Shown here one piece after another: positions 3,119 to 63,038 of a stretch of DNA of 64,000 nt (position 1 is the first letter of the stretch; each line of letters opens with the position of its first letter). Source of the stretch: a virus. Lineage: Duplodnaviria > Heunggongvirae > Uroviricota > Caudoviricetes. The notes beneath the pieces were generated by a model. It saw nothing but the letters and a program-made list of their open reading frames with translations. It searched no databases and had not been told where the DNA came from. Location of the stretch: IMG/VR virus record IMGVR_UViG_3300031088_000819; one strand, 5' to 3'. Position numbers and translations under genes: made by a program.

Positions 3119-3181
3119 TTGCATGTGGCGCTAATTCATGTATGATGGAACTACACCGCAACACCAAAGCTAAGGACTATC
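3119..3181 (+). promoter_or_regulatory. sigma70-like promoter with conserved ACACC leader
   Basis: TTGCAT at 3119-3124, N16, TATGAT at 3141-3146, then GAACTACACCGCAACACCAAAGC. Same class as 7535, 19395, 25703 and 40385. Confidence 0.5.
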
Positions 3182-5447: not shown

Positions 5448-5567
5448 TAATCGACAGCCGTCCTTGGTCTAGCCCAACCATAGCGTAGTTGGTTGTTTTC
5501 AGCCAGGGTTCCACATATGATGGAACCATGAACGCCAGCGAAGAACTATTGTGGAAGAGGGGCTCTG

Positions 5568-6690: not shown

Positions 6691-7521
6691 ATGATGGCGC
6701 CAGAAAGCATAGCTAGCAACTCCACGCGGTCCCGAAAAACCCTCGCTGGCATAGCCATGGGCTCCATCGCCATCGCGGGAGTGCTAGCGGCTGCGGCAGT
6801 TGCCCTCGGTGGAGACATCTGGAAGGCTTCAAGCACAGCTGGAATCATTTTCCTAGCTACTATGCTGCTTCTCGTCTCCTTCGTGGCTGTCCACCGCTGG
6901 CTCAGGGTGAGCCAATGGGTGCTTGCGCCGATAGTAGCGCTGCTGAGCTCAATTCAGATCTGGTGGGATGGGGACTATGGGGTTGAGCGGGTAGGCCCCA
7001 CTGGAGAGCTCGCCTATATGAGAACTGATTATGGCATATTCTCAGACTGGTCTATGGGGCTCTGGTGGATAGTAGGCGCCTTAGTGCTGCTTTCTTTCTT
7101 CTCTCGGACCTGGGAGGCTCTAAAAAATAGCCCAAGCCATCGGGCGGCTATCTCTTTGGTCTACTACGCTGTATTTGCCATCACCTTGGTGGCCGCCACA
7201 GTCGCCCTGGTGAGCTCCGGCCTAGAGATCGAAGGCGATTCGGTCTATTTGCTCCAGAGCGTGCTTGCGATTCTGGGGCTCACGGGTGCTACTATAGTTA
7301 TCATTAGCGCCTTCGTGAATAGGCCAAAGAGGCAGAGCCAAGAAATCCAAATCCCCGCCAATAGTCCTCAACTACCGGAGGCCGTCATAGCTCGGATTGT
7401 GGATGCGAGAATCGCAGAGCTCCTGGATAGCCCAGCCTGGAGGGATCTTTTTAGAGAGAAGCTCCAGCTAGAGCGCAGCGAAGATAGCGCCAAATCCCTT
7501 CCCGAAGACCTGGAGAAATAG
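6691..7521 (+). CDS. polytopic membrane protein
   Basis: SD AGGAG upstream. About six hydrophobic helices. Confidence 0.6.
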   Translation: MMAPESIASNSTRSRKTLAGIAMGSIAIAGVLAAAAVALGGDIWKASSTAGIIFLATMLLLVSFVAVHRWLRVSQWVLAPIVALLSSIQIWWDGDYGVERVGPTGELAYMRTDYGIFSDWSMGLWWIVGALVLLSFFSRTWEALKNSPSHRAAISLVYYAVFAITLVAATVALVSSGLEIEGDSVYLLQSVLAILGLTGATIVIISAFVNRPKRQSQEIQIPANSPQLPEAVIARIVDARIAELLDSPAWRDLFREKLQLERSEDSAKSLPEDLEK

Positions 7522-7534
7522 TTCCTCGAAGTAG

Positions 7535-7601
7535 TTGCATTTGATCTGTTTCTGTGTTAGAGTAGGTATCACACCAAACCAACCACAGAGATGGAGCAAC
7601 C
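7535..7601 (+). promoter_or_regulatory. sigma70-like promoter with CA-rich leader
   Basis: TTGCAT at 7535-7540, N17, TAGAGT at 7558-7563, then leader CACACCAAACCAACCAC. Confidence 0.5.
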
Positions 7602-9725
7602 ATGTCTCAGATCACAGCCGCTTTCCGACAGGCAGCACTACGCCGAGGATTCCTCGTTACTCCTCGTAGGACCAAGGGTTCTGTCAACCCTGCCCTCAAG
7701 TTCGCTGCAGCTATTGAGCTCGCCAACCTGGGTTTCATCGTGGATCCCCAGGAACTCGCTGGTGTGGCCGGCAAAGATCTCTCTGCAGTGATCTCAGAGG
7801 CTCGCACTGTCATCGGCGCTGATCGGGACATGGAGCCCATCTACCCGGGCTTCCCCAAGCAGGTGGAGGAGCTCTCCACGCTCACTCTCCTGGTGGAGCA
7901 GATTCTCCACTACTGGACCGGCGGCGCATTCCTGCCGGATTACCCCAAGGAGGTCCGCGAAGGACTGCCCCTCGAGGACATGCTCCGAAACGCCCGTGAG
8001 CTCAAGGTGCTTCCCGCCGCCGATGTTGCCCGGGAGCTGACTAAGGCTCTCGTGCAGTCTCCCGTCGCGATTTCCGATGATGACCGCAACCTTCTCCTCG
8101 AGGGAGCTAAGCTCATCGATTCGAGCACTGTCAGCATCGTAGAGATCGCTTCTGGCGCGGCCAATGGAGAGAATCTCCAGGCCTTCCAGCGAGCGCTCAT
8201 CGCTGCGGGTGTGGCGGACGGAGCTGACGTCTTCCTGGCTCTCGCACCTCAGGTCAAGACCCTGGATCACCTTCTCCGGCTCTTCCTGGGCAGCTTTGCT
8301 CTGCCCTCGGCAGAGAAGTGGCAGAAGAACTTCGAGCAGGCCGTTGGCAATCTCGCAGATCGCCACGCTCGTTCGGTGGCCTTCGGAGCGGTTCCCCGAG
8401 CTGCCCGCAAGGTCTTCGTGGAGCAGACTGGGAAGCTTTCCCGGGGTTTCTTTGCCGACAGCTTCATCGGTCGACAGGGGCTCTGGCGCCGGGCTCTGAA
8501 GGCCGTCCACTCCTTTGAGCTCGCAAAGGACGACGCGGGCCGCAGGGCTCTTGCCATCGTCCACTCCAACGTTGAGTACCAGACGCTCAACTCCCTCATC
8601 GAGTCCGCTAAGGCCCAGCGAGATGTGGCCAAGGCTGTAGCTCTTCTCAAGGAGCACCGTCCCGGTCAGCTGCTTCGAGAGGTCGTTTCTCTGCTCCGGC
8701 TCGTGGATTCCCACGCAGCGGCCATCGAGCTCGCAGAAGCGCTGCGGGCAACTGCAGGCAAGGCCCGCGTGGACACGCTTGTGAGTGCCTACAATGGCAT
8801 TCTGAGCGCCAACGACGAGGGGCCGCGGGTGAACCGCGTTGCGGGTCTCAACAACACCATGCTTGATCGCTCCAACGTGGCCAAGGTGGACGAGGCCCAC
8901 CTCGCCATCGCCCTGGATGCCATCAAGGTTGCCCTGGTGGAGGCCCTGGCTTCCAAGAAGGCCCCCGAGGGTCCTGTGGCTGTGGGTGGAGCTATGGCTC
9001 TGCCTCTGGTGCGCCGGGACGCCTCTACGGCTGACCGCCAGATGAGCCGTGGTGAAAGCTTCGGTCTCGTGGGCGAGGGAGATGTGATCCGCATCTTCGG
9101 CCACTGGAACAACAACATGGGCCGCCACGGCTACATGGACATCGGTGCAGTGCTTCTCGATGGCGACTTCAAGGAGCTGGCTGTGCTCACCTGGGACACA
9201 TGGAACAACCACCGCTCCTGGGGAACCTACTCGGGCGACAAGAACGTGGCTCCCGGAGACTCCGCTGCTGAGTTCTTCGATCTGAAGCTGGCGGAAATCC
9301 GCAAGCAGAAGCCCGAGGCCAAGTGGATCGCTATGACGGTTCAGTCCTGGTCGGGATTCCCCATCGATGATGTGGACTTCATCGCTGGAGCTATGCTCCG
9401 GTCGAAGGATGGAGTTCAGAAGGGCGAGGTCTTCGACGCTCGGGCGGTCACTACCGCTTTCCACCCCACTACGAAGTCTCTCCAGGCCGTCCCCTTCGCA
9501 GTGGATCTCGAAGAGGGTAAGTTCGTTTGGGTGGATAGCTCCAACGGCTCCACAGAGACCGGAGTTTCTTCCTCCAGGGACAGCTCCATTGGGGCAATCG
9601 TCTACGATGAGATCTCCCGGCCTCGGCTCACTGTCGGAAAGTTCGCGGCGCTCTGGGCCCAGGCCCACGGCGCTGAGACCACCGAGGCAGAGGCCGACGT
9701 GGAGCTGCTCACAGGGCTGCTCTAA
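7602..9725 (+). CDS. large protein (707 aa) with a C-terminal TerD-like domain
   Basis: The C-terminal ~200 aa (DIGAVLLDGDF ... YSGDKNVAPGDSAAEFFDLKL ... IAMTVQSW) match the TerD/TerE beta-sandwich with its GDN-type calcium motif. The N-terminal ~480 aa are alpha-helical and unrecognised. Confidence 0.7.
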   Translation: MSQITAAFRQAALRRGFLVTPRRTKGSVNPALKFAAAIELANLGFIVDPQELAGVAGKDLSAVISEARTVIGADRDMEPIYPGFPKQVEELSTLTLLVEQILHYWTGGAFLPDYPKEVREGLPLEDMLRNARELKVLPAADVARELTKALVQSPVAISDDDRNLLLEGAKLIDSSTVSIVEIASGAANGENLQAFQRALIAAGVADGADVFLALAPQVKTLDHLLRLFLGSFALPSAEKWQKNFEQAVGNLADRHARSVAFGAVPRAARKVFVEQTGKLSRGFFADSFIGRQGLWRRALKAVHSFELAKDDAGRRALAIVHSNVEYQTLNSLIESAKAQRDVAKAVALLKEHRPGQLLREVVSLLRLVDSHAAAIELAEALRATAGKARVDTLVSAYNGILSANDEGPRVNRVAGLNNTMLDRSNVAKVDEAHLAIALDAIKVALVEALASKKAPEGPVAVGGAMALPLVRRDASTADRQMSRGESFGLVGEGDVIRIFGHWNNNMGRHGYMDIGAVLLDGDFKELAVLTWDTWNNHRSWGTYSGDKNVAPGDSAAEFFDLKLAEIRKQKPEAKWIAMTVQSWSGFPIDDVDFIAGAMLRSKDGVQKGEVFDARAVTTAFHPTTKSLQAVPFAVDLEEGKFVWVDSSNGSTETGVSSSRDSSIGAIVYDEISRPRLTVGKFAALWAQAHGAETTEAEADVELLTGLL

Positions 9726-9746
9726 GCTCTAGGCAGCTGCCTCCAG

Positions 9747-9781
9747 GTGGAGCCCCGCACCGCGGGGCTCCACCTTTCCAT
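9747..9781 (+). terminator. intrinsic terminator
   Basis: GGTGGAGCCCCGC acc GCGGGGCTCCACC stem followed by TTTCC. Confidence 0.65.
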
Positions 9782-9923: not shown

Positions 9924-10025
9924 TTTCCCTGCTAGCGATAGCCAGCAGAAAACGGGTTTAGAGCAACCGTTGCTTGAACTTTCCCCCTGGTGTACTATCT
10001 TATTACACTAACCGTAAGGATCACC

Positions 10026-10475
10026 GTGCTTCAGCTTCATCTCATCATCGTGCCCCTGGTCTTTGCTGCGCTGCTGGCGGCCACCATTTTCTTCCACTCC
10101 AAGGCTCGCAAGAAGAGCCTCGAATCAGGTAAGGAATACACGGATTCAATCCATGCCCTTTTTGGCTTTATGGGTATGGTTTTCAGCGCTATCATGGGGA
10201 TCGCTATTCTGATTTCCCTCATCCCCTTCCAGCCGAAGTTCTGGTTCGTCCACAGCGAGGCAGGAACCATCACGGAGATCGATTCCCGCAGCGCCTCCGA
10301 CGGCAGCAACCTCATCACCGACTTCGCTATCAAGCTGGACAGCGTGGAAGATGTGCTGATTTCAAATGATCCCCGCTTCCTTCAGGTCGAAAAGGGCGAT
10401 TCGGTGGATCTCATCTGCACATGGGAATGGGTTCCCTACGGCAAGGATATCTACAACTGCCAGCTCGGAGGCTAA
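10026..10475 (+). CDS. membrane protein
   Basis: GTG start with SD AAGGA 6 nt upstream. N-terminal TM helix plus a second helix. Confidence 0.5.
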   Translation: MLQLHLIIVPLVFAALLAATIFFHSKARKKSLESGKEYTDSIHALFGFMGMVFSAIMGIAILISLIPFQPKFWFVHSEAGTITEIDSRSASDGSNLITDFAIKLDSVEDVLISNDPRFLQVEKGDSVDLICTWEWVPYGKDIYNCQLGG

Positions 10476-10569: not shown

Positions 10570-11031
10570 ATGTATGGTTTAACTATGACCACAAGCTTTG
10601 AGAGCCGACTGATGGTTTCCAAGGGATCCTTCGTTGCCCTGGAGGTCCCCGTCGAAGCCGTGGAGAGCTACAGCCCTAGTCTTCGGAGGGAACTCGGCAG
10701 CCGCTACGATCAGCTGGTCGCCAACAGAGATGCCCGTTCGGGAGCTGGAAGCTACCACATGACTGTGATCAAGCCCCGCGAGTTCCGCCAGCTCAGGAAG
10801 AGCCACGGGGCACTGGAGCTTCCCTCGGGGCACTTCCGGGTTGTGGTCCACGGAGTGGGCACCGTTTCCGACGATAGCTCACAGACTTGGTATCTCGTGG
10901 CGGACTGCCCGGAGCTCAACCAGTGGCGCCGTAGCCTTGGGCTGCCAGCCCATGATTTCCACATCACGCTCGCCTTCGAAGCCGGAGGGGATGTCCACGG
11001 GCCATCCAAGGGCATCGAGACTCTGCTCTAG
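10570..11031 (+). CDS. 2H phosphoesterase (LigT/Acb1-like fold)
   Basis: Two H-x-T-x motifs (YHMTVI and FHITLA) about 90 aa apart in a 153 aa protein. Confidence 0.55.
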   Translation: MYGLTMTTSFESRLMVSKGSFVALEVPVEAVESYSPSLRRELGSRYDQLVANRDARSGAGSYHMTVIKPREFRQLRKSHGALELPSGHFRVVVHGVGTVSDDSSQTWYLVADCPELNQWRRSLGLPAHDFHITLAFEAGGDVHGPSKGIETLL

Positions 11032-11818: not shown

Positions 11819-12496
11819 ATGAACGCCACCATTCGCACCCGTCTGGCCCGAGCCGCCGCCACTATTGCCGCCGCCGCAGTTGCTTTCGGCATGCTGACGG
11901 CATGTTCAAGCGCTCCCGAGAGCCGTCCCGAGTCCGACCCCCAGGCTGTGGCTTCGGTGTTCGAGGCTCTCGATGGCGCCGATCAGGTCGTGGCCCAGAA
12001 GTCGCCGATCTCCTTTGGTGACAAGTGGACAATCACGGCCGACGGCCAGGAGATCGGTGAGATCCGCGGCGAGGTGATCTACCTCATCGGTGACACCTAT
12101 ACTCTCTTCGCTCCGGATGGTTCCATTGTGGCCTCCGAGGAAGAGCAGTTCAAGGTCGTAACCCGCAAGGCGAATCTCTACGACAGCACGGGGCAGATCT
12201 ATGGTGCCCTCGACCAGCAGTTCACCCTGTTCATGGCGAAGTATTCGATCCTCGATGGCGAGGGTGTAGCTATTGGAACCGCTGAGCAGAAGCTCAACTG
12301 GACCATGAAGTTCGATGTGATGAGCGCTTCGGGCTCCAAGGACTACCAGATCAGCAAGGCCGCCATCTCGATGGGCTCCAAGGTGACTGTGGATCGGCTC
12401 ACCACTGACACGAAGATCTCCATGCTGGACGCTCTCTGGGTGGCAGTTGTGGCCTCCGAGGTTGAGGACGCTCAGAGCGAGGATTCCAACAGCTAA
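11819..12496 (+). CDS. lipoprotein
   Basis: MNATIRTR ... signal peptide with lipobox LTAC. TATAGC is 6 nt upstream of the ATG. Confidence 0.6.
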   Translation: MNATIRTRLARAAATIAAAAVAFGMLTACSSAPESRPESDPQAVASVFEALDGADQVVAQKSPISFGDKWTITADGQEIGEIRGEVIYLIGDTYTLFAPDGSIVASEEEQFKVVTRKANLYDSTGQIYGALDQQFTLFMAKYSILDGEGVAIGTAEQKLNWTMKFDVMSASGSKDYQISKAAISMGSKVTVDRLTTDTKISMLDALWVAVVASEVEDAQSEDSNS

Positions 12497-25768: not shown

Positions 25769-26197
25769 ATGAAGATCACTGTTGCTAACACTGTCGAGGC
25801 TGTCAACATTGTTAAGAACGATGATGGCACTGTGAGCATCGAGCTCAAGGGCGTGGACGCTGTCCGAGCTGAGGTGAAGCAGATCGCAAAGAAGCCCGCT
25901 GGCGGCATCAAGCTCATTCACAGTGGAGTTCGAGGCATTCCCGTGCTCTCCCGGGCCCAGAACGAGAAGATCACAGCCAGCAAGTGTGGCGTTCCCTTCA
26001 TGGACAGCAAGCTTCGACAGAAGCTCATTGAGAACGGCGCCCCCATGCTCGTTCGCGTCAATGTCTCTGATGCTAATATGTATACCAGCCAGAAGTCCGC
26101 TGCGAAGCACGGCATTCAGCTTCGCTTTGAGGCCACTCACAAGATTGAGGGAGACACCAACGCTCGAGGTAACGTCTACGCTGAGCTCGTCTGGTAG
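25769..26197 (+). CDS. hypothetical protein, probably strongly expressed
   Basis: 142 aa ORF framed by a consensus promoter and a strong terminator. Confidence 0.55.
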   Translation: MKITVANTVEAVNIVKNDDGTVSIELKGVDAVRAEVKQIAKKPAGGIKLIHSGVRGIPVLSRAQNEKITASKCGVPFMDSKLRQKLIENGAPMLVRVNVSDANMYTSQKSAAKHGIQLRFEATHKIEGDTNARGNVYAELVW

Positions 26198-26207
26198 AAA
26201 GCACTAT

Positions 26208-26241
26208 AAGAGGGGCGCCGCTGCGGCGCCCCCTCTTATTA
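26208..26241 (+). terminator. intrinsic terminator
   Basis: AAGAGGGGCGCCG ctgc GGCGCCCCCTCTT, a perfect 13 bp stem, followed by ATTAGC. Confidence 0.7.
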
Positions 26242-26585
26242 GCATGAGCCAATGTTTTGAAGTCTAAAAGCAGTCTAGCAATGTTGTAGATGGCGATCTA
26301 TATGCCCTATGGTAGCCTTAGCAGCACGAGACAAATGAATAACATCATGGAGATTTTCTAGCGCCTCCTAGATGTTTTCAGCATCGAGAAATTTCTCCTC
26401 GCTTGAGAAAATCTCATTTATCTTCCCCTGGCTATCGCAGCATCTTTGTAGTTCACTATAGATTTGGTTCAATGTGGTGTAATTCTGGTTCAATATGGCG
26501 CATTATGCGACCATCTTCTAATCCGTGTATGCAAACAGAACTCGCTTTGATATAGCTATTGTCTTTATTTTATAGCGAGGTTAGC

Positions 26586-27863
26586 ATGGACACCACATTT
26601 ACCATCATTGAAGAAAATAAATCTACCATTGCTGGACTAGGTGATTTACAGCTCACAATAGAATTAGGTATTCCCTATTACTTGCCGTCACACCGGGGTG
26701 ACTATCAGGGCCTCTGGAATCTTCTAGAGGAATTCGAAACCTTAGTGCTAAGCACCAAGAGAAACGAACTCTTAGAAAAAGAGAGAAATTTTTTGAGAGA
26801 GGCCAAGTCCAAGGGTTTCGTGGTGGTATTAGCTGGTCCAAGTCCATTCTTTTGGGAAAAGGGTGACGGAGAACTAATAGATCACAAAATATCTCTGGAT
26901 CCATTCCAAGAACAAGATCACTCACCACAGAGAGATGTGGCTTTCTTTTTCGAAGGATCAGGTTTAAAGTCTGATTTCCATAGAAGAGATGTCCAAGTTA
27001 CCATCTCTATATCTAAATTTCTGATTTCCTCTATGCGCAAATCTAAGAGTGAGATCGAAGAGGCTTCCTACGAAATTACTAAATATTTCCCCACAAGCGG
27101 GAAACTTTATATTTCAGAAATTGACTCCATACCTAATTGGCTTATTTTACAACTTTTGAAAGAACTTGAAAGTAAAAATACATCACTTGTGATCCTAAAT
27201 GAAAATCGAAAGATCACAGCAAAGGAATTGGAAGAATTCAGAAATGAGATTAAGCGAAGATGGAGAGATAATCTTCCCAGACAAGTGATTGTTTTAGATC
27301 CAGAGGGCAATAGAGCTAGTAAATTAAAAGGCGCGATAGACGCAGCTAGTAGCTATGAAAATCGATCTGGTCATGTAGATGTAGATTACTACAAGGGTGG
27401 AGATGAAATCGGCTGGAAATGGGAAGGTGCCTTTGAAAAAGCTAGAAACACTCCTAATGTTTTTCTAGTTGTTGAAGATGGCTCAGTTCTTCAACGTAGA
27501 GCAATGGATATACGAAAATATCTCAGTGAAATAGAAGCACTTGGTGGAGGTCTGTCCTTTGCCCACCAATCTAATGCGCTTTTTCACCATTTGGGAGCAG
27601 GATTTTACATTCTAGCAGATGAACCTCTAGCTAAGCTTGTAGAGCATCTTAAAGTAGATTCCTATCTCGACGAAATGAGCCTACAGACTCCCGTAAACCA
27701 AAGCGCCCTTTCAGAATATTCCCAAAATGTCGCTGTCAAACTGAAAGAACAAGGGAAAACTATTCAAGAGACATCGAAGATCATGGGAGTCAATAAATCA
27801 ACCATAAGCCGTTGGTTTAAAACGCTAAGAGGTCAACAAAGCAACCACGAAGATGAAAACTGA
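26586..27863 (+). CDS. protein with a C-terminal helix-turn-helix, in the low-GC island
   Basis: C-terminal KTIQETSKIMGVNKSTISRWFK is a resolvase/transposase-type HTH. Paralogous to 28633-29280. AT-rich codon usage. Confidence 0.55.
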   Translation: MDTTFTIIEENKSTIAGLGDLQLTIELGIPYYLPSHRGDYQGLWNLLEEFETLVLSTKRNELLEKERNFLREAKSKGFVVVLAGPSPFFWEKGDGELIDHKISLDPFQEQDHSPQRDVAFFFEGSGLKSDFHRRDVQVTISISKFLISSMRKSKSEIEEASYEITKYFPTSGKLYISEIDSIPNWLILQLLKELESKNTSLVILNENRKITAKELEEFRNEIKRRWRDNLPRQVIVLDPEGNRASKLKGAIDAASSYENRSGHVDVDYYKGGDEIGWKWEGAFEKARNTPNVFLVVEDGSVLQRRAMDIRKYLSEIEALGGGLSFAHQSNALFHHLGAGFYILADEPLAKLVEHLKVDSYLDEMSLQTPVNQSALSEYSQNVAVKLKEQGKTIQETSKIMGVNKSTISRWFKTLRGQQSNHEDEN

Positions 27864-27930
27864 TAGCTCCAATAACAGATAAACAAACAATTCACAGCTG
27901 TCCGAAATGCTCTCAATATAAGGAAATACT

Positions 27931-28377
27931 ATGAAAAGTAAGAAGAAACCTATGAGCCAATTTGTGGCATCGACACTGATGGATCTGGATGAACTGATAC
28001 TACGGCCACATTCGGGTTGGGTAGACGGAGCAGGCGTCCTCAACGAAGTTGACTGGTTCAGCACCGATGAACACAAAGCGAACAAGGAGAAAGGTCTATC
28101 CCACTCCTACAAGGAACCGTTCAGATCGAGAGGCTACCAAATAGCTCAGAGCCTGTCAGACAGCTCCTGGTGGGGAATCCGCTGGAACGATGCCTATGAG
28201 TTCATCAGCGAACACAAGGGGAAAGAAGCCGCAGCAAAGTTCGTTGAGATCAGGTTGGATCTAGCCGACAGGCAAGGCTGGTCTGGATATGGCCGGGACG
28301 GAGAGAGGCGACCACGAATAACTGTGTTTAGCGCTCCAAACATCGTCGTGCCTACGGAGGATGATGAAAAATCCTAA
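27931..28377 (+). CDS. hypothetical protein
   Basis: 148 aa. SD AAGGAAATA upstream. Confidence 0.45.
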   Translation: MKSKKKPMSQFVASTLMDLDELILRPHSGWVDGAGVLNEVDWFSTDEHKANKEKGLSHSYKEPFRSRGYQIAQSLSDSSWWGIRWNDAYEFISEHKGKEAAAKFVEIRLDLADRQGWSGYGRDGERRPRITVFSAPNIVVPTEDDEKS

Positions 28378-28392
28378 ACTAGTGCTATAAAA

Positions 28393-28424
28393 ATAGCCCC
28401 GAGCTTCAGCTCGGGGCTATTTAG
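28393..28424 (+). terminator. intrinsic terminator
   Basis: ATAGCCCCGAGC ttca GCTCGGGGCTAT stem followed by TTAGTG. Confidence 0.6.
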
Positions 28425-28632
28425 TGATGCCAATAACAGAATATTTATCTTTGAAATTAACTAAAAATTCAAAAGTTTGCTAACATTCCCACTTATGAGT
28501 ATCTAGATGCAAAATCTTATTTCGATTGATCTAAGGAACAAGATATTCTATGTCCTATTTTTAGCAATAGTTGCTTTGATATGGTAATTGATCGTTCCGG
28601 AAATTCCACGATCTTATTACATGGAGTAATTT

Positions 28633-29280
28633 ATGTCCAATCAAAGAACATACGCCCTAGTAGTAGATAGCCAAGAAGAACTTCAAAGATTTATAGGTCT
28701 TAGAGGTATCATAAGTGATGCTGAAGGCATGAGCGGAATAAGAAATTTAGATACTCTACAAGCTCAAGGCAATTTCAAAATCTACGGTGAACTCGAAGAA
28801 GATTCTTTCGGTAAGAAACGCAGTGGTACCAATATAGCAGAAGCCATCAAATATGTAACCACTCATCGCAATAGTGTCCTAGGAGTCACCTCTATTGAAC
28901 AAATTTCTAACAATATCCAAACTATTGTAGAAATACTGCAAGACATCCATGCAGCAGGAAGCGGAATCGTAATTAGATTTTCCTCCAGGGGCCTAGAGTT
29001 GAAATTTAGTCAGAGCGGTGAATACAATGGTTGGATCTGGATTGGTCAGGCTCTAGCCGATTTCATCGAACAAGTAAAGATTGCTGCCTACTTCGATGAG
29101 ATGTTCCACCCAAGTGCTTGGGCTAAGATTCCTAATTCTAAAATGTATCAGGTTTGGGATCAGATCAGTGCTGAAAAGAGCAATGCAGCTGTGTCTAGAG
29201 CTACCGGCATTTCAGAAAAAACAGTAGCTAAGCTAAGGCGCCGATTCAAAAATTTGGAAACCATCTATCGGAATAGATGA
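28633..29280 (+). CDS. protein with a C-terminal helix-turn-helix, paralog of 26586-27863
   Basis: C-terminal AAVSRATGISEKTVAKLRRRFK is an HTH. Shared block LA(K/D)..E..K..(S/A)Y(L/F)DEM. AT-rich. Confidence 0.55.
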   Translation: MSNQRTYALVVDSQEELQRFIGLRGIISDAEGMSGIRNLDTLQAQGNFKIYGELEEDSFGKKRSGTNIAEAIKYVTTHRNSVLGVTSIEQISNNIQTIVEILQDIHAAGSGIVIRFSSRGLELKFSQSGEYNGWIWIGQALADFIEQVKIAAYFDEMFHPSAWAKIPNSKMYQVWDQISAEKSNAAVSRATGISEKTVAKLRRRFKNLETIYRNR

Positions 29281-30881
29281 TGGTGCTAACACAAAGAAAA
29301 GAGTCCGCCAATAGCGATGCTGAATTAGTGGCGGTGGACTCCGCTACGGCTCTATCTTTTCTAGAAGAGCACTCCACCTCGGACAAAGATAGGCCAGGCA
29401 GCAATCTACGAAGCTGGGGCATAGAGGGGAATGGACAGCTCTTAGCAGTAATAGCAATCTGTAATCCTCGCACCCTAGAGCTTCAGAAAAGCTATACAAC
29501 TGAGCTCTATGGACTAGCTGTCTCAAATCAAAAGGCCAGTGGAGAGCTGATCAACTCTCTCATGAGCATAGCGATGGAATCAGGCATTCCAGACCTTTTC
29601 ATCCAAGGAGAACGAGCAAAAGAATATGGACAATACGGATTCGAGCGATCAACTGTTAGCAGTGATAATTCTGAGAGCTCAATCTATCATTGGCGTGATC
29701 CCTCAGTTCGATTTTACACCTACAAAATCACTAGCTCAAAGGGCAAAGGTTACTACATAGGCCGCCACAGAACAAGCCTGGAAACCATCGAAGAAATGGT
29801 CACCGATGGCTACATGGGCAGTGGGGGAGTGAAGTATAAAAACTGGATAGCCTCAGTTGGCGAAGAGACACTCTCCAAGGAAATTACAGGAGTCTATGGC
29901 ACTTGGAAGGAAGTAGTAGCTGCAGAAGAACAGCTCATCGGAAATCTCTATAAAACAGACAGCAATTGTAAGAACAGCAAACCGGGAGGCATAGGGCTTA
30001 CCAGCTATATGCCTGCATACACTATAGATTTTTGTCCCATACATGGGAAAACGAAGTTCAGAGGAAGGTGCCATAAATGCACAGTAGGTGATGCCCAGTC
30101 TCTGAAGGAATGCACTATACATGGACTCGTACTACATCGTGGTGATTCTTGTTTTACCTGCGTTAGAAGCAAAACTAACACTAAAAAGGAATGTTTAGTT
30201 CATGGTTTAGCTATCCACTATGGTGACACTTGTTCAAACTGCGCTAGCGCAGCAGCTAAACAGCTAGCAGAGTGCGAAATTCATGGATTTGTCATTCACC
30301 AGGGTAGCTCTTGTGCAACATGCGTAGCTGAAAAATCTGTTTCCCTTAAAATTTGCGCCATCCATGGAGAGACCAAGCATGTTGGCCAACACTGTCGTAA
30401 ATGTCTTAATGGCAGCGTAATAACTGAAAGCAATTGTCCCATTCATGGTCTAACCTCTTTCAAGGGCGAGAGCTGCGTCAAGTGCTCTGCAGCAAAGAGT
30501 TGGGCTATCTTTGAGTGTCCTATCCACGGTCAGACCAAACATCGAGGCAACAGCTGTGAAAAATGCACTCAGCAACAACGAGCTGCAGAGCAAAGAGCCC
30601 TTGAAGTGGTTCAAAGCTGCGCCACGCATGGCGAAACCGCTTTTCTCAAAGGTGAGTGCAAGCGCTGCGTAGCTCAAAAGAAAATATCCCTGAAGAAGTG
30701 CCCCACTCACGGGAAAACCAAACACACGGGGAATACTTGTGGAAAGTGTCTGGTGGCAAAGGTATGGACCACCGAAGAGTGCTCCATCCACGGTCTAGTT
30801 AAGCACCGCTCTGGCAAGTGTCAAAAGTGTGCTGCTCTCGCTAGCTGGGCAAAGCGCAAAGCCAAGGCGAAGGTAGATTAG
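29277..30881 (+). CDS. GIY-YIG-like domain protein with ~9-12 tandem zinc-ribbon repeats
   Basis: FYTYKITSSKGKGYYIGRH resembles a GIY-YIG nuclease motif. It is followed by a tandem array of C-x-x-HG-x3-(H/F)-x4-C-x-x-C units (~18 aa each). ATGA overlap with the upstream gene. AT-rich. Confidence 0.6.
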   Translation: MMVLTQRKESANSDAELVAVDSATALSFLEEHSTSDKDRPGSNLRSWGIEGNGQLLAVIAICNPRTLELQKSYTTELYGLAVSNQKASGELINSLMSIAMESGIPDLFIQGERAKEYGQYGFERSTVSSDNSESSIYHWRDPSVRFYTYKITSSKGKGYYIGRHRTSLETIEEMVTDGYMGSGGVKYKNWIASVGEETLSKEITGVYGTWKEVVAAEEQLIGNLYKTDSNCKNSKPGGIGLTSYMPAYTIDFCPIHGKTKFRGRCHKCTVGDAQSLKECTIHGLVLHRGDSCFTCVRSKTNTKKECLVHGLAIHYGDTCSNCASAAAKQLAECEIHGFVIHQGSSCATCVAEKSVSLKICAIHGETKHVGQHCRKCLNGSVITESNCPIHGLTSFKGESCVKCSAAKSWAIFECPIHGQTKHRGNSCEKCTQQQRAAEQRALEVVQSCATHGETAFLKGECKRCVAQKKISLKKCPTHGKTKHTGNTCGKCLVAKVWTTEECSIHGLVKHRSGKCQKCAALASWAKRKAKAKVD

Positions 30882-30943
30882 TTCCGTGATCTTCGTTAGA
30901 ATGGTTCTGTCTCATTGAACACTAACTAGAGGGGCTGGTAACC

Positions 30944-32035
30944 TTGGCTGTAGGACGGATGTATCCACAAACCATCGACAACGCAATAGCGATGCTGGAA
31001 AAGGTCTTCAAGAATTTTGAAAAAGCAGATTCTGGAGATGAAGATCGCTTCGTGTCAATTCTCATTAGCCGCCCTGGCCTCGGGAAATCTGCAACCATCG
31101 CAAAGATGGCAAAGCGCATGGGCTATGATTTGGTAGACCTTAATCTTGCCCAGTTAGATCCTACTGACGCACTAGGACTTGGAGCGAGAGAAAAAATTAA
31201 TGGCAAATGGGAAACTCACGTAGCTCTTCCCCAATGGGTTCATCGTGCAATGGCCGGAAAGTGCATCATTCTTGTGGATGAGTTCAATATGGGAACTCAA
31301 GATGTGCTTGGATCTTTCCAAAAGATGTTCTCGGATTTCGTCATCGATGGTGAAAAGCTCCCGAGGACTACCCACATCATCGGTGCCTGCAATCCTCCCG
31401 GCAAGGATGCTATCTTCGCAGCAAAGCGGCTCTCGGGAGCCTTCCGGCGTCGTCTTTGCATGATTCCCATCATCGATGACTTCGAGTACGTGCAGAAAAA
31501 GCACGGCTTCATCATGCCTCGGGGCTTTGTGAAGCCCAACTACGAGGACATCATCAACTATTGCAGCTACGATGAGATCTCCTCGGCAGTTGTGGATAAT
31601 GTCTTCAACATCGCCTCCTACGATGGACTCAAGGACGCAGAGAAGATCTCCCTCGTGGCGGGCTTCGGAGAAAAGGCCTTGGAGTTCGCCCAGGAGCTGG
31701 ACCTCTTCGCTAGCCACCTCTTCGCCTCCAGCTACAAGGCCACCAACTCGGAGCTCACCTACGTGGAGTGGAAGCGCAACCCCGAAGACTCCATCCCCGA
31801 GTACCAGCAGATCCTCTGGGGCCAAGAGTCCATCAAGAACAGCAGCTCCTACAACAACCAGAAGAAGTTCCTTTCCAGAATCGAGAACAACAGGGTCTAT
31901 GTGGCTCTCTATGCGCTCGTCAAGGAGAAGTTCGATGTGGATTACGAGGTAGATGAGGCCAAGCTGCCCGACTCAAAGGAGGACCCCACGGGTCAGCTGT
32001 CTGCTGTCGGTTCCACTGTCGAGGAGCAGGGCTAA
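30944..32035 (+). CDS. MoxR-like AAA+ ATPase (AAA_5 type)
   Basis: Walker A RPGLGKSAT, Walker B CIILVDEFN, sensor IIGACNP. Confidence 0.75.
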   Translation: MAVGRMYPQTIDNAIAMLEKVFKNFEKADSGDEDRFVSILISRPGLGKSATIAKMAKRMGYDLVDLNLAQLDPTDALGLGAREKINGKWETHVALPQWVHRAMAGKCIILVDEFNMGTQDVLGSFQKMFSDFVIDGEKLPRTTHIIGACNPPGKDAIFAAKRLSGAFRRRLCMIPIIDDFEYVQKKHGFIMPRGFVKPNYEDIINYCSYDEISSAVVDNVFNIASYDGLKDAEKISLVAGFGEKALEFAQELDLFASHLFASSYKATNSELTYVEWKRNPEDSIPEYQQILWGQESIKNSSSYNNQKKFLSRIENNRVYVALYALVKEKFDVDYEVDEAKLPDSKEDPTGQLSAVGSTVEEQG

Positions 32036-32036
32036 A

Positions 32037-33905
32037 ATGGCGCGGCTCCAGAAGAACTTTTCCTACGGTGAGCTCTGGACTGATCAGCCCGTTCGTAAAA
32101 GCGAAGTAGAGGGACTCCACGGCAGGGTAGAGGAGAGCCTTGCAAAGTTCACCACCAATGACGCCTTTGTGGACTTCGCAGAGCAGCATGGCTACAGGTT
32201 CTACATCGACTACGACTTCGACGGCGTAGCTCGTACCAACGTGACTGCCCGCGAGATCATTGTCAATGGCAACTATCCCGATGAGCTACTGAGTTCCTTC
32301 ATCCAGCACGAGATGGGCCACCTCATGCTCTTCGACGTGAACCAGTTTGTGACAGTGGGTAAAACCACCATGCGCTCTACAATCGCCGATGTGATCTACA
32401 CGCCAGAAAATCTCTCCACCTACGGCATGAGGCAGCTGCTACTCCTGGAGAACATCATCCAGGACATCATCATTGAGACCGTTTCGGATGGTTTCTGCGT
32501 TTGCAGCAATAGCCTCACCCACCTGGGTGGCAACATGGGCGTAAAGCACCTCCCCAGCCTCGAAGACACGAAGATCATTGCTCGAGAAGCCGCCAAAACG
32601 GTTCTCCGGGTAGAGGACAACTCCGACTTCAGCTCCGAGGAACTCGGCGACCTTCGGGGACTTTTGGAATCCATGCTAAAAGATCTCGAAGCGGATATGG
32701 GCGAGATCGGCGAGGAGATCAAGAAGAATTCCACCACCAACAAGTTCTCCGCCGAGAAGAGTCTTCAGAGATTCCGGAAGCTCCACGCTAAGAAGCAGCA
32801 GCTGGAAAAAGTTGAGAAAAAGCTCGCTAAAAAGTGGAACTCCAAGCTCCAAGCTCTCGCTGACAGGTTGGAGGGGGAAATCGAAGAGCTCGAAAGCCCC
32901 GAAAGAATAGAGAAGGACGCCGAGGAGGCGGAAGCGGAGCGGGCCAAGGAGGGGAAGAGACTCTCGGATAAGCTCGAAGCTGCGGGAGAGCTTCATAAGG
33001 CCCTCGAAGAACAACTCCGCAAGGCCGAAGAAGCGGAGGCCGAGCGAGACGCCTCCGGGGAGGATAAGAAAGCTGGTGGCGAGGCGAGCAAAGAGCTCAT
33101 CAAGAACTACACTGACCGCAACAGCTCCGACGATGAGGCCCCCGAAAATCCAGGCCACTCCTTCGATTGCGGGTTCCCTCATCCCGTCACCGTCGACCGC
33201 AGTGAGTCCCATGGGAATGAGCGCCATCTTCGCAAGATCAGTGGTGGCGTGAGAATCAAGACTTTGAGGCTCACCGAAGATGACGCTGATAACTCCATCG
33301 GCGGCAGAAGAAAAGCCCAAACGAGCGAGTACACCTATTTCAAGTCTGCCAAGAAGGAATTCGATGAGACAGACATGCTCAAGGGTAAGCGGAGGGAGAA
33401 GCTCACTGGCATCAATGTGCTCATTGGACTGGATGTCTCGGGTTCTATGACCAATGAATGGACTTCCATGTTCAGTGAGATCTCTAGGCTGGTGGAGGAA
33501 CTCAAAGAAACTCTTGACATCGAAGAAATCATCTACTTCACCTACAACCATAGGCTCCGGCAGCACTCCAGGGAGTTCTCCGACCTGAAGCTCACAGCTA
33601 GCGGCGGCAACGCATTTGGCTATGTCTACCAGGATATGATGACGCGGCTCCCCATGCTCCAAAAAAATGAGATCATTCTGGTGACAGACTGTGGAGATAG
33701 TCTAGGGTTCAAGCTCAACTCTGTCTGCCAGGCGGAGCGCAATGGCGTGGAGGTGGAGAACCACATCTCCATCATTGACACGGAGGGCGCTGGTTTCTAC
33801 GCTAAGAGTGACTTCCAGGCTGAAGATTGGGACATCTATTCGGCCAAGGACAAAAAGCTCTACAAGGGCATCAAGGATCGCATAGAAGAGCTCATCGAGC
33901 GATAG
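32037..33905 (+). CDS. zincin-like (HExxH) plus C-terminal vWA (MIDAS) protein with a central charged coiled coil
   Basis: FIQHEMGHLM near the N-terminus. LIGLDVSGSM MIDAS motif near the C-terminus. About 130 aa of E/K-rich coiled coil between them. Starts 2 nt after the AAA gene. Confidence 0.7.
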   Translation: MARLQKNFSYGELWTDQPVRKSEVEGLHGRVEESLAKFTTNDAFVDFAEQHGYRFYIDYDFDGVARTNVTAREIIVNGNYPDELLSSFIQHEMGHLMLFDVNQFVTVGKTTMRSTIADVIYTPENLSTYGMRQLLLLENIIQDIIIETVSDGFCVCSNSLTHLGGNMGVKHLPSLEDTKIIAREAAKTVLRVEDNSDFSSEELGDLRGLLESMLKDLEADMGEIGEEIKKNSTTNKFSAEKSLQRFRKLHAKKQQLEKVEKKLAKKWNSKLQALADRLEGEIEELESPERIEKDAEEAEAERAKEGKRLSDKLEAAGELHKALEEQLRKAEEAEAERDASGEDKKAGGEASKELIKNYTDRNSSDDEAPENPGHSFDCGFPHPVTVDRSESHGNERHLRKISGGVRIKTLRLTEDDADNSIGGRRKAQTSEYTYFKSAKKEFDETDMLKGKRREKLTGINVLIGLDVSGSMTNEWTSMFSEISRLVEELKETLDIEEIIYFTYNHRLRQHSREFSDLKLTASGGNAFGYVYQDMMTRLPMLQKNEIILVTDCGDSLGFKLNSVCQAERNGVEVENHISIIDTEGAGFYAKSDFQAEDWDIYSAKDKKLYKGIKDRIEELIER

Positions 33906-45018: not shown

Positions 45019-46098
45019 ATGGGTTCCCTTATTCTTACAGTTCTGCTTCTAGTTCTGCTGGTGGCAGGACTCGTATCGGCGCGGCTAGCGTCTCGAAAGA
45101 TCAAGGCAGCCAAGGCTCAGCTGAAAGCTCCAGCGCCCCAGGAGTCCTCTGGCAAAAATCGAGGCTACGACTACGGCTACGAGGAACAGCGCCAGGCTCG
45201 CGCCAAAAAGCTCAAGTCCAAGATCACTGTTCAGTCCTACGTTCGCTGGGGCTCTCGGGCGGTCTCCGTTCTTTCTCTAGCGCTCATCGCCATCATGTGC
45301 TTCACCACCGTTTCCGCGAAGAACGTGGGTGTAGCGGTAACCTTCGGTGCGGTTTCCGAGAACACTCGAGCTCCGGGTATCCAGACAAAGCTACCCTGGA
45401 CGAAGATCATCGAGATCGATGGCACGATTCAGACAGACCAGTATAGTGGCGAGAACTGCATCGCCGTTCGCATCGGCGACGGAAGCCAGGCCTGCGCTGA
45501 AATCGTCAACCGCTGGCAGATCAACCCCGAAAAGGCCGCTGGCATCTACGAGCAGCACCGGTCGGATGATCCTACTCAGTCTTTCCGCTCCGCCATCGTT
45601 AGCACTCAGCTGAAGCAGTCCGTTCAGGAAGCTCTGAAGAACTACAACCCCATCGCTCAGCTCAAGGCTGTGGGAGGGGACGAGCTGTCCACCGATCTGT
45701 CCTTCGCTCCCGACTACGGTGAGATCTCCAAGGTCATCGAAGACGACATGAAGAAGCGGCTATCCGATAAGAACCAGGCTCAGATCGAAGGCATCACTTT
45801 CTCCTATCTGAAGCTCTCCGAGAACACCCAGCGCAAGCTCGATGACTACGTAGCTGCAATCGGTGAGACTCGCATTGCCACCCAGCAGCGAGAGACCGCC
45901 AAGGCTCAGGCTGAGGCCAACAAGGAACTGTCTGCATCTGTTAGCAACGACCCCAACGTGCTCGTGTCGCGCTGCTTCGACATGCTCAAGGATGCAAGCC
46001 AGACTGGCTACCAGCTCCCTGCGGGCTTCAGCTGCTGGCCTGGTGGTGGCTCGGGCGTGGTGATTCCGGGGGTTCCTGGAGCCTCCACTACCGAGTAA
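45019..46098 (+). CDS. SPFH/band-7 (prohibitin-like) domain membrane protein
   Basis: N-terminal TM helix, a basic linker and a second TM. VSAKNVGVAVTFGAVSE..APGIQTKLPWTKIIEID resembles the SPFH core. C-terminal coiled-coil-like region. Confidence 0.55.
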   Translation: MGSLILTVLLLVLLVAGLVSARLASRKIKAAKAQLKAPAPQESSGKNRGYDYGYEEQRQARAKKLKSKITVQSYVRWGSRAVSVLSLALIAIMCFTTVSAKNVGVAVTFGAVSENTRAPGIQTKLPWTKIIEIDGTIQTDQYSGENCIAVRIGDGSQACAEIVNRWQINPEKAAGIYEQHRSDDPTQSFRSAIVSTQLKQSVQEALKNYNPIAQLKAVGGDELSTDLSFAPDYGEISKVIEDDMKKRLSDKNQAQIEGITFSYLKLSENTQRKLDDYVAAIGETRIATQQRETAKAQAEANKELSASVSNDPNVLVSRCFDMLKDASQTGYQLPAGFSCWPGGGSGVVIPGVPGASTTE

Positions 46099-61680: not shown

Positions 61681-61718
61681 ACATTGTGGAAAATGTCCAA
61701 AAGGTGTATCGTAGTAAT

Positions 61719-63038
61719 ATGGACAACAGAAACCCAACCGAGAGCACTGCGCTACTCACCGACTTCTATGAGCTCACTATGAGCCTTGCCGCCCTCAATG
61801 CTGGCACAGCCCATCGACAGACAACCTTCGAGCTCTTCGCTCGCAAGCTGCCCGAAGGTCGTCGCTATGGCGTGGTTGCAGGCACCTCTCGGATGATTGA
61901 AGCCGTGGAGAACTTTCGATTCACGGAAGACCAGCTTTCCTACCTCTCCCGCCAGAAAGTGATTTCCCCTGAAATCCTCAATGAGCTCAAGAACTTCAGG
62001 TTCCGCGGCACAATCCACGCTTACCCAGATGGAGAGCTCTACTTCCCCTACTCTCCAGTCGTCACCGTGGAGGGCATTTTCCTTGAGTGCGTGCTCCTGG
62101 AGACACTTCTCCTCTCCATCTACAACCACGATTCGGCCATTGCTTCTGCTGCATCTCGCATGGTAGAGGCGACTCAAAACAAGTTCTCTCTCATTGAGAT
62201 GGGCTCTCGCCGCACCCACGAGGCCGCCGCAGTTGACGCTGCCCGCATTGCCTATGTGAACGGCTTTGGAAGCACCTCCAACGTGGAGGCAGGATTCCGC
62301 CACGGCATCCCCATTTCGGGCACTTCTGCCCACGCTTTCACTCTCTCCTTCGGTGACGAACGGGAAGCCTTCGCTGCCCAGGTGGCCGCTCTTGGCACAG
62401 CTACCACTCTTCTCGTGGACACCTACGACATTCCCCAGGGCATTCGCAACGCCATCGAAGTTGCGGGCCCTCAGCTCGGGGCAATCCGCATCGACTCGGG
62501 TGATCTCGTGGAGGAGACCTTTAGGGCCCGCGCTCTTCTCGATTCCCTGGGCGCCACCGAAACGAAGATCATCCTCTCCTCGGACATGGATGAGTATTCC
62601 CTCGACAGACTTCTGAAGGCAGGCGCTCCCGTGGGCGGCGCTGGCGTGGGAACTAGACTTGTCACTGGATCGGGCCACCCCACAGCGAGCATGGTCTACA
62701 AGCTGGTGGAACGGGAAGCCTCCAACGGCGAAATGGTCCCGGTGGCCAAGAAGGCAGAGGGCAAGAAGTCCATCGGTGGCCGCAAGTTCCCCTACCGAAC
62801 TGTGAGCGAAGATGGCGTCTACACTGCTGAAATCTTCCAGAATCGTGCAGAAAATGGCACCGAACCGGCCGGAAACGACATGGTGCACTTCCCCTCGAAG
62901 CCGCTGGAGCAGCTCGCTGAGCTCACCATCCAAGATGACCGAATCAATGCCCAGCGGAACCGCGACATGCTGCCTGAAGCTGTCAAAACTGTAGAGCCCG
63001 GTGAGAGCTATCTCGTAGCTCGCCCCCAGGGAGAGTGA
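61719..63038 (+). CDS. pncB: nicotinate phosphoribosyltransferase (actinobacterial PncB type)
   Basis: STALLTDFYELTM ... RRYGVVAGTSR ... FRF match the family-II NAPRTase N-terminus (LLTDxYELTM) and continue to match downstream. An alternative GTG start lies at 61686. Confidence 0.85.
   Translation: MDNRNPTESTALLTDFYELTMSLAALNAGTAHRQTTFELFARKLPEGRRYGVVAGTSRMIEAVENFRFTEDQLSYLSRQKVISPEILNELKNFRFRGTIHAYPDGELYFPYSPVVTVEGIFLECVLLETLLLSIYNHDSAIASAASRMVEATQNKFSLIEMGSRRTHEAAAVDAARIAYVNGFGSTSNVEAGFRHGIPISGTSAHAFTLSFGDEREAFAAQVAALGTATTLLVDTYDIPQGIRNAIEVAGPQLGAIRIDSGDLVEETFRARALLDSLGATETKIILSSDMDEYSLDRLLKAGAPVGGAGVGTRLVTGSGHPTASMVYKLVEREASNGEMVPVAKKAEGKKSIGGRKFPYRTVSEDGVYTAEIFQNRAENGTEPAGNDMVHFPSKPLEQLAELTIQDDRINAQRNRDMLPEAVKTVEPGESYLVARPQGE

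Follow-up and report, generated by a model that had tools for sequence, protein, structure and literature searches.

The 64,000-nucleotide (nt) stretch of Caudoviricetes DNA analysed here (hereafter the window; IMG/VR record IMGVR_UViG_3300031088_000819) carries an open reading frame (ORF) with an ATG start at 7602..9725 on the plus strand, exactly as an initial annotation had listed it, and its product of 707 amino acids (aa) is the subject of this work. The reading frame and its homology mark it as the coding sequence of a protein that combines a helical region with a TerD-type domain and lacks a RING finger. Sequence comparison identifies this protein as a RING-less member of a family that is known, computationally defined and already named, and we regard both the family placement and the TerD assignment as very probably correct. 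The protein is stand-alone and appears to be cytoplasmic. It consists of an acidic helical N-terminal subdomain delimited by alignment (residues 1-125, 7602..7976), a basic all-helical repeat region seen in the structure model (residues 126-470, 7977..9011), a divergent, acidic TerD-type beta-sandwich (residues ~480-655, 9039..9566) and an acidic helical C-terminal tail defined by the model and a family alignment, A10 (residues 656-707, 9567..9722), all on the plus strand.

The initial annotation had proposed a TerD-like domain at the C-terminus, and fold, a profile-profile match and intermediate sequences all bear this out. A Pfam search of the window protein returned 0 families even at E ≤ 1, thus no direct match to PF02342, while the beta-sandwich prediction that was to be checked alongside it came out clearly positive in the structure model. 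Against PDB, Foldseek gave TerD of S. coelicolor (3ibz) as the sole significant match, and the modelled beta-sandwich of the C-terminal domain superposes on solved TerD structures. For profile comparison, the TerD reference was built from genuine TerD, TerE, TerZ and TerA of an annotated E. coli plasmid, located with a TerD sequence that served as bait only and was 100% identical to annotated terD genes. The C-terminal profile of the family aligned to this reference with an hhalign score of 92.4% (E 5.3e-7); with 256 family sequences this rose to 97.1% (137 columns, E 5.9e-11), and negative controls stayed at 0.0-0.2%. The motifs originally singled out, LLDGDF, YSGDKNVAPGDSAAEFFDLKL and IAMTVQSW, were aligned by hhalign to the TerD motifs DLDASAFLL, HTGDNRTGEGDGDDESLKIKL and KIIFVVTIH. 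When 70 diverse homologs were scanned, the Pfam TerD model matched 13 of them at E ≤ 1 (best 2.8e-7), with no other family recurring, and one homolog (P0212) reached 27.1 bits, over the gathering score of 25.3. An HMMER profile of the C-terminal domain missed the TerD chains in PDB, a search with this domain alone recovered eight fragments only, and PADLOC and PDB sequence searches with the window protein gave nothing useful. We take the TerD call to be right although Pfam fails, because Foldseek, the profile-profile comparison and the intermediates agree.

The description of GDN-type calcium loops in this domain stands in part. The SGD triplet, E557 and D560 are near-invariant, and S544, G545, D546, E557 and D560, plus D513, D635 and D645, are each at least 90% conserved in the family; D513, D546, E557, D560, D635 and D645 make up a conserved acidic cluster of the beta-sandwich. 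The GDGDDE run of TerD, however, reads PGDSAAE in the window protein.

No Pfam, NCBIfam or PADLOC domain explains the N-terminal two-thirds, in keeping with its first description as a helical region without a recognisable motif. The N-terminal subdomain bears the signature (M/I)YPGFPxQV...HY, and its conserved positions are G44, G72, Y81, F84, P85, V88, H103, Y104 and P112; per-residue confidence of the structure model (pLDDT) is low at residues 76-89 and 113-122. Residues 126-470 are predicted with good confidence as a helical array. This region is basic family-wide, with a median isoelectric point of 9.2, and the TerD module is acidic. Seven arginines are near-invariant in the family, and conserved residues in the helical array include R226, R269, W295, H303 and R359. 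Alignment A10 contains 35 invariant columns, which extend from G44 to D645.

The family is large. An HMMER search over 1.84 billion representative sequences returned 2,151 clusters at 50% identity, 603 of them at E ≤ 1e-30, and nearly all clusters are 670-770 aa long and match end to end. The ~700-aa layout is thus collinear and conserved across ~2,150 clusters, which contradicts the earlier view of the protein as a large fusion, and its N-terminal region was not seen to occur independently as a separate protein, save for gene fragments on short contigs. Among 215 homologs the best 120 are 49-85% identical to the window protein. The sources are phages of Actinobacteria, Firmicutes, Proteobacteria and Campylobacter, together with bacterial chromosomes and plasmids. 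Full-length phage relatives include proteins of Mycobacterium phage WXIN (45% identity), Rhodococcus phage Weasels2 (gp266), a human-gut phage, Rhodobacter phage RcXuper (gp7), Ruegeria phage RpAliso (gp9) and Xanthomonas jumbo phage XacN1 (ORF396), and structure searches added relatives in Lactobacillus phage LpeD and Campylobacter virus IBB35.

These proteins carry several names. NCBI labels the ~700-aa RING-less forms of Bacillus, Clostridium, Paenibacillus, Gemmataceae and Armatimonas 'TerD family protein' and lists the Prok-RING_4-bearing forms as 'RING finger family 4' or 'MXAN_6230/SCO0854 family RING domain-containing protein'. The window protein matched phrog_33734 (E 4.6e-50, 171.9 bits; residues 257-702 against profile positions 275-737 of 764) and the RING family model NF041916 (E 2.2e-41, model positions 367-752 of 842), the latter with 141.9 bits against a curated cutoff of 600 bits. 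We conclude that the MXAN_6230/SCO0854 RING proteins, the 'TerD family protein' annotations and phrog_33734 are one family. The NF041916 proteins share the layout of the window protein, from a (M/I)YPxFP...HY motif through a basic helical region to a TerD-type domain in alignment A10, but theirs is a RING finger that the window protein lacks. Prok-RING_4 (PF14447) found no match on it, whereas the model matched the Streptomyces (70.2 bits) and Variovorax (28.3 bits) homologs. In alignment A10 the RING finger is an insertion in the loop at ~105-122, after the conserved HY, and the remainder is collinear; in the window protein this loop is short, modelled with low confidence and without Cys/His ligands. 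The cellular RING forms also run on past the C-terminal tail of the window protein, and the Streptomyces RING proteins have a C-terminal extension of ~70 residues that is absent from it.

Together with phrog_33734, the RING-less 'TerD family protein' forms (Bacillus mycoides p210, Clostridium perfringens pJFP838A, Paenibacillus, Gemmataceae; ~690-730 aa) are the true peers of the window protein, although these peers are only 20-45% identical to it and the phage copies are annotated as hypothetical. Canonical TerD, TerE and TerZ (PF02342; 2kxt, 2qz7, 3ibz) are single-domain proteins of ~190 aa encoded in ter operons. In the window protein, by contrast, the domain makes up the C-terminal quarter of 707 aa, the GDGDDE run is degraded, a Pfam match is missing and the gene lies outside a ter operon. 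The Jug-phage TerD paper likewise concerns canonical small TerD proteins, not the ~700-aa family.

The gene appears to have its own transcription signals, as the initial annotation had held for the promoter. Sequence reading and a regular-expression scan, by which the promoter family of the window was collected, locate a promoter-like site at 7535..7563 on the plus strand (-35 TTGCAT, a 17-nt spacer ending in TGT, -10 TAGAGT), with the TG of an extended -10 one base ahead of the TAGAGT hexamer. It is followed by a CA-rich leader of 38 nt (7564..7601) with a Shine-Dalgarno GGAG at 7593-7596, six bases 5' of the ATG. Past the gene, at 9746..9779, lies a terminator-like hairpin read from the sequence, with a perfect 13-bp GC-rich stem (GGTGGAGCCCCGC / GCGGGGCTCCACC), a 3-nt loop and then TTTCC. 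A generic sigma-70 scan did not call the promoter, and a generic terminator scan, which demands at least five T, did not list the hairpin. We infer that the two sites act as promoter and terminator, and with its own promoter and a downstream hairpin the gene therefore looks monocistronic.

Similar CA-rich leaders follow three further window promoters, at 3119, 19395 and 40385; with 7535 these differ from the rest of the promoter family in their ~35-nt CA-rich leaders with Shine-Dalgarno sites. The window-wide family has the form TTGNNN, 15-19 nt, TATGAT-like, with examples at 5493, 6132, 10550, 11369, 11784, 15713, 17911, 38344, 39417, 47829 and 51917. In many members an ATG lies 6-7 nt past the -10 box, in a conserved GGAACT-ATG-AAC-GCC-ACC context, and the N-termini behind such close-set boxes are alike (MNAT.., MTT..). 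This spacing implies leaderless mRNAs for many window genes, which would be an Actinobacteria-like trait. The 707-aa gene also contains an antisense ORF of 624 aa at 7794..9668 on the minus strand, whose only matches are equivalent antisense ORFs in homologous genes. We rejected it as a real gene and regard it as a compositional artefact, because all homology lies in the sense frame.

An identical protein is encoded on a 475,513-bp metagenomic contig (ENA ERZ27247443, k141_1824480), and the contigs with close homologs measure 200-830 kb and hold mostly ORFans on one strand (e.g. L005, 828,236 bp). Big-phage accessory genes on such contigs encode RNase T, RNase H, 2H-SAK, HAD-SAK, NadR, a nicotinamide mononucleotide (NMN) transporter and HIT proteins. 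A search of 185,579 species genomes for the close clade found one 3.7-kb contig of a metagenome-assembled genome, so this clade is essentially absent from the collection, which fits a phage or mobile origin. The mobile-element-like setting suggested in the initial annotation is thus supported, and the element that carries the gene may be a huge phage or another giant mobile element; for the first 20 kb of the window, megablast retrieved no similar phage. A 2H-SAK phosphoesterase, an RNA-repair type domain, is encoded two genes downstream of the 707-aa gene (10570-11031), with RNase T ~8 kb upstream and RNase H ~8 kb downstream.

The flanking genes at 6691-7521, 9990-10475 and 11819-12496 appear membrane- or lipoprotein-like by eye. 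The last of these, which encodes 225 aa, is the sole neighbour common to a homologous locus (L005 7202-7885, 37% identity), where it has another relative position. PHROG scans of ten window ORFs gave families of unknown function plus one band-7/SPFH-like 'lipoprotein' at 45019-46098 (phrog_200, E 3.4e-32); in Rhodococcus phage Trina (L018) a band-7-like lipoprotein gene lies directly 3' of a Ro-like gene. By eye, the ORF at 61686-63038 resembles nicotinate phosphoribosyltransferase. A gene for a MoxR-like AAA_5 ATPase (30944-32035) is followed by one for a 650-aa protein (31953-33905) with no Pfam match, in which we read metallopeptidase-like HEMGH and vWA-like LIGLDVSGSM motifs. The region 26000-30900 has a GC content of 0.41-0.44 against ~0.54 elsewhere in the window and may be a recent insertion; it encodes a helix-turn-helix protein (26559-27863) and a 534-aa protein (29277-30881) without a Pfam match that has about ten tandem C-x-x-HG-x-x-x-H-x-G-x-x-C-x-x-C repeats.

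All-against-all BLAST found no conserved partner gene across nine loci of homologs. RNA-related genes lie near several of them. In RcXuper and RpAliso the gene sits within tRNA arrays and is followed by a nucleotidyltransferase gene (with one small ORF between in RcXuper), which in RpAliso is annotated as a tRNA CCA-adding enzyme. In Weasels2, tRNA genes flank the gene and RtcB is encoded 3 kb downstream; in XacN1 a nucleotidyltransferase gene lies three genes upstream; and genes for an RNA ligase and an RNB ribonuclease lie within 8 kb of the homologs on Streptomyces plasmids. Opposite the Variovorax homolog (L021) runs a divergent operon of DUF6283, two hypothetical genes and, last, rtcR. 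A perfect sigma-54 promoter, TGGCACgggcaTTGCA, precedes the ATG of this homolog by ~55 nt (L021 8902-8917), and the same promoter (TGGCAC-N5-TTGCW) lies ~80 nt before a second, independent RING-type homolog, likewise proteobacterial (L027 7907-7922); one other match was found among 29 loci.

The helical part of the model shows a weak but repeated structural similarity to the Ro60/TROVE ring. In a BFVD structure search, a TROVE protein was the first recognisably named match outside this family and, apparently, outside TerD (E 1.1e-3). The likeness would be one of fold only, a weak lead rather than a sign of membership. TROVE homology at the sequence level was tested four ways and rejected, and a motif likeness between RQ..LWR..AVHP and RQRNGW..RDLLRL.HP was lost with a deeper profile. 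The Pfam text for PF14447, attributed to Burroughs, Iyer and Aravind in 2011, reportedly describes this finger as joined to an alpha-helical domain, ROT/TROVE-like repeats and a C-terminal TerD domain, and is said to suggest a role in RNA processing. The architecture was reportedly first described, in all probability, by Burroughs in 2011, Anantharaman in 2012 and Burroughs and Aravind in 2016.

Ro60/Rsr and the window protein resemble each other in that a large helical-repeat module is followed by a globular domain, metal-binding in Ro60/Rsr and putatively so here, and Ro-like genes of phages (Sixama, Trina) also adjoin tRNA genes. They differ in that the C-terminal domain is a vWA domain with MIDAS in Ro60/Rsr and a TerD fold here, in the lack of detectable TROVE sequence homology and in the lack of a Y-RNA-like gene in the window. 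A further likeness is that rtcR accompanies one homolog, that of Variovorax, while in Salmonella rsr belongs to the RtcR-controlled operon. The comparison is thus a hypothesis about how the protein works, not a claim of membership.

We propose for the 707-aa protein a Ro60-like role as a scaffold that handles RNA. Its basic helical repeats would bind a polyanionic ligand, most likely RNA that is structured or damaged, for example tRNA, and the acidic TerD module, in place of the vWA/MIDAS domain of Ro60, could provide docking or sensing that depends on a divalent cation or a small ligand. A large phage would transcribe the gene from its own promoter, and the product would contribute to keeping the tRNA/RNA pool usable under nuclease attack by the host or a rival, and bacteria would deploy the family under sigma-54 control, with RtcR in Variovorax. 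We hold the RNA-scaffold mechanism itself only tentatively; for the statement as a whole, family and TerD identity plus a Ro60-like mechanism, our rough probability is 0.4. A broader version, in which the family represents a second, sequence-unrecognisable line of ribonucleoprotein scaffolds of the Ro60 type, with TerD replacing vWA/MIDAS, sigma-54 control in bacteria and rescue of damaged tRNA/RNA in hundreds of large phages, seems unlikely to us as it stands. Such a lineage might have a small RNA partner.

Several results weigh against a Ro60-like mechanism. When compared by hhalign with six annotated phage Ro-like proteins, the helical region scored 0.4-2.4%, in alignments that were unstable between runs, and Pfam TROVE (PF05731) matched 0 of 70 family members. 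The window holds no tRNA or tmRNA gene and no Rfam family at gathering score, Y RNA included. No rtcR was found at the other sampled cellular loci (L027, L028, L029, Bacillus, Clostridium, Mycolicibacterium), and our literature search found no experimental study of any family member. The accessory regions of large phages are in any case rich in tRNA and RNA-repair genes, so the association described above may be background.

The strongest alternative, which we consider rather unlikely, is a Ter-type stress or superinfection-exclusion factor, whose TerD domain would sense Ca2+ or a nucleoside-like signal, as has been suggested for Ter systems, and whose action would alter envelope or stress physiology and so make the infected cell resistant to rival phages or toxic compounds; the helical region would then be a scaffold for protein interactions and would bind no RNA. 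The TerD domain is genuine, and a survey of jumbo phages recorded TerD genes that stand alone in actinobacterial group 3 phages and proposed that Ter components act against superinfecting phages (PMC7824862). The membrane- or lipoprotein-like appearance of the flanking genes, and the recurrence of the 225-aa gene near the L005 homolog, would suit an envelope function, and in Deinococcus a TerB-family gene is found 2 kb away from the homolog, at the only sampled locus of this kind. TerB, TerC, TelA, vWA TerY/TerF and PRTase/HAD genes are, however, absent within ±10 kb of the window gene (Pfam listing) and from L005 and L019, and most homolog loci lack Ter components as well. No membrane-spanning hydrophobic stretch stands out in the sequence or the model, the putative Ca-binding run GDGDDE is degraded to PGDSAAE, and this explanation leaves unaccounted for the basic helical module of 345 residues and the tRNA and RtcR contexts, which an RNA scaffold would address.

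The counter-defence role suggested in the initial annotation comes closest to a protein-targeting adaptor or decoy, in which the cellular RING forms would be E3-like or peptide-binding and a RING-less phage copy would block the host pathway through the same partner. For this, which we judge quite improbable, speaks the site of the Prok-RING_4 insertion, which is precisely the loop that the phage protein keeps short, with the rest collinear. RING forms are also encoded by Actinobacteria (the likely host group), namely on Streptomyces plasmids. Gene pairs for vWA and MoxR-like AAA proteins lie near the Streptomyces RING homologs (L020, L025), and in the window the MoxR-like AAA_5 gene and its neighbour with a vWA-like DxSGS motif are 21 kb from the 707-aa gene. 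On the other hand, ordinary bacterial chromosomes commonly carry RING-less forms (Frigoriglobus, Bacillus, Paenibacillus, Armatimonas), hence RING loss is not specific to phages; a RING-bearing copy lies on an ORFan-rich, phage-like contig too (L028, 570,549 bp); and genes for E1, E2, Ubl or JAB proteins did not turn up near any of the sampled loci. A virion or other structural protein with the beta-sandwich as a carbohydrate- or surface-binding module we discount almost entirely, for although such domains are common in phage structural proteins and weak Foldseek matches to tail-fibre and BACON-domain proteins stood at ranks 9-10, its neighbours in WXIN, Weasels2, RcXuper and the window are small genes of early or accessory type rather than structural modules, bacterial chromosomes carry orthologs, sigma-54 promoters precede some of the orthologs, and phrog_33734 has no structural annotation.

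As to the counter-defence or host-takeover role put forward at first, the presence of chromosomal orthologs (Frigoriglobus, Bacillus, Paenibacillus) and of orthologs preceded by sigma-54 promoters, of which one adjoins rtcR, argues for a stress or RNA-maintenance function that the phage has borrowed and against a dedicated anti-defence invention; phage RNA repair would be a form of counter-defence in its own right. With ~2,150 clusters the family is very large. It is enriched among large phages, and it recurs in large or jumbo phages whose hosts are unrelated as well as in many bacteria. It now offers testable handles: the C-terminal TerD domain is real, the phage proteins are RING-less SCO0854-type proteins, and the proteobacterial branch appears sigma-54-controlled, once together with rtcR. 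If the Ro60-like mechanism is false, the window protein is one more 'TerD family protein' annotated by similarity. If it is true, the family would be a new player in the conflict between phage and host over tRNA/RNA integrity, and the long-enigmatic TerD domain would gain a defined molecular setting.

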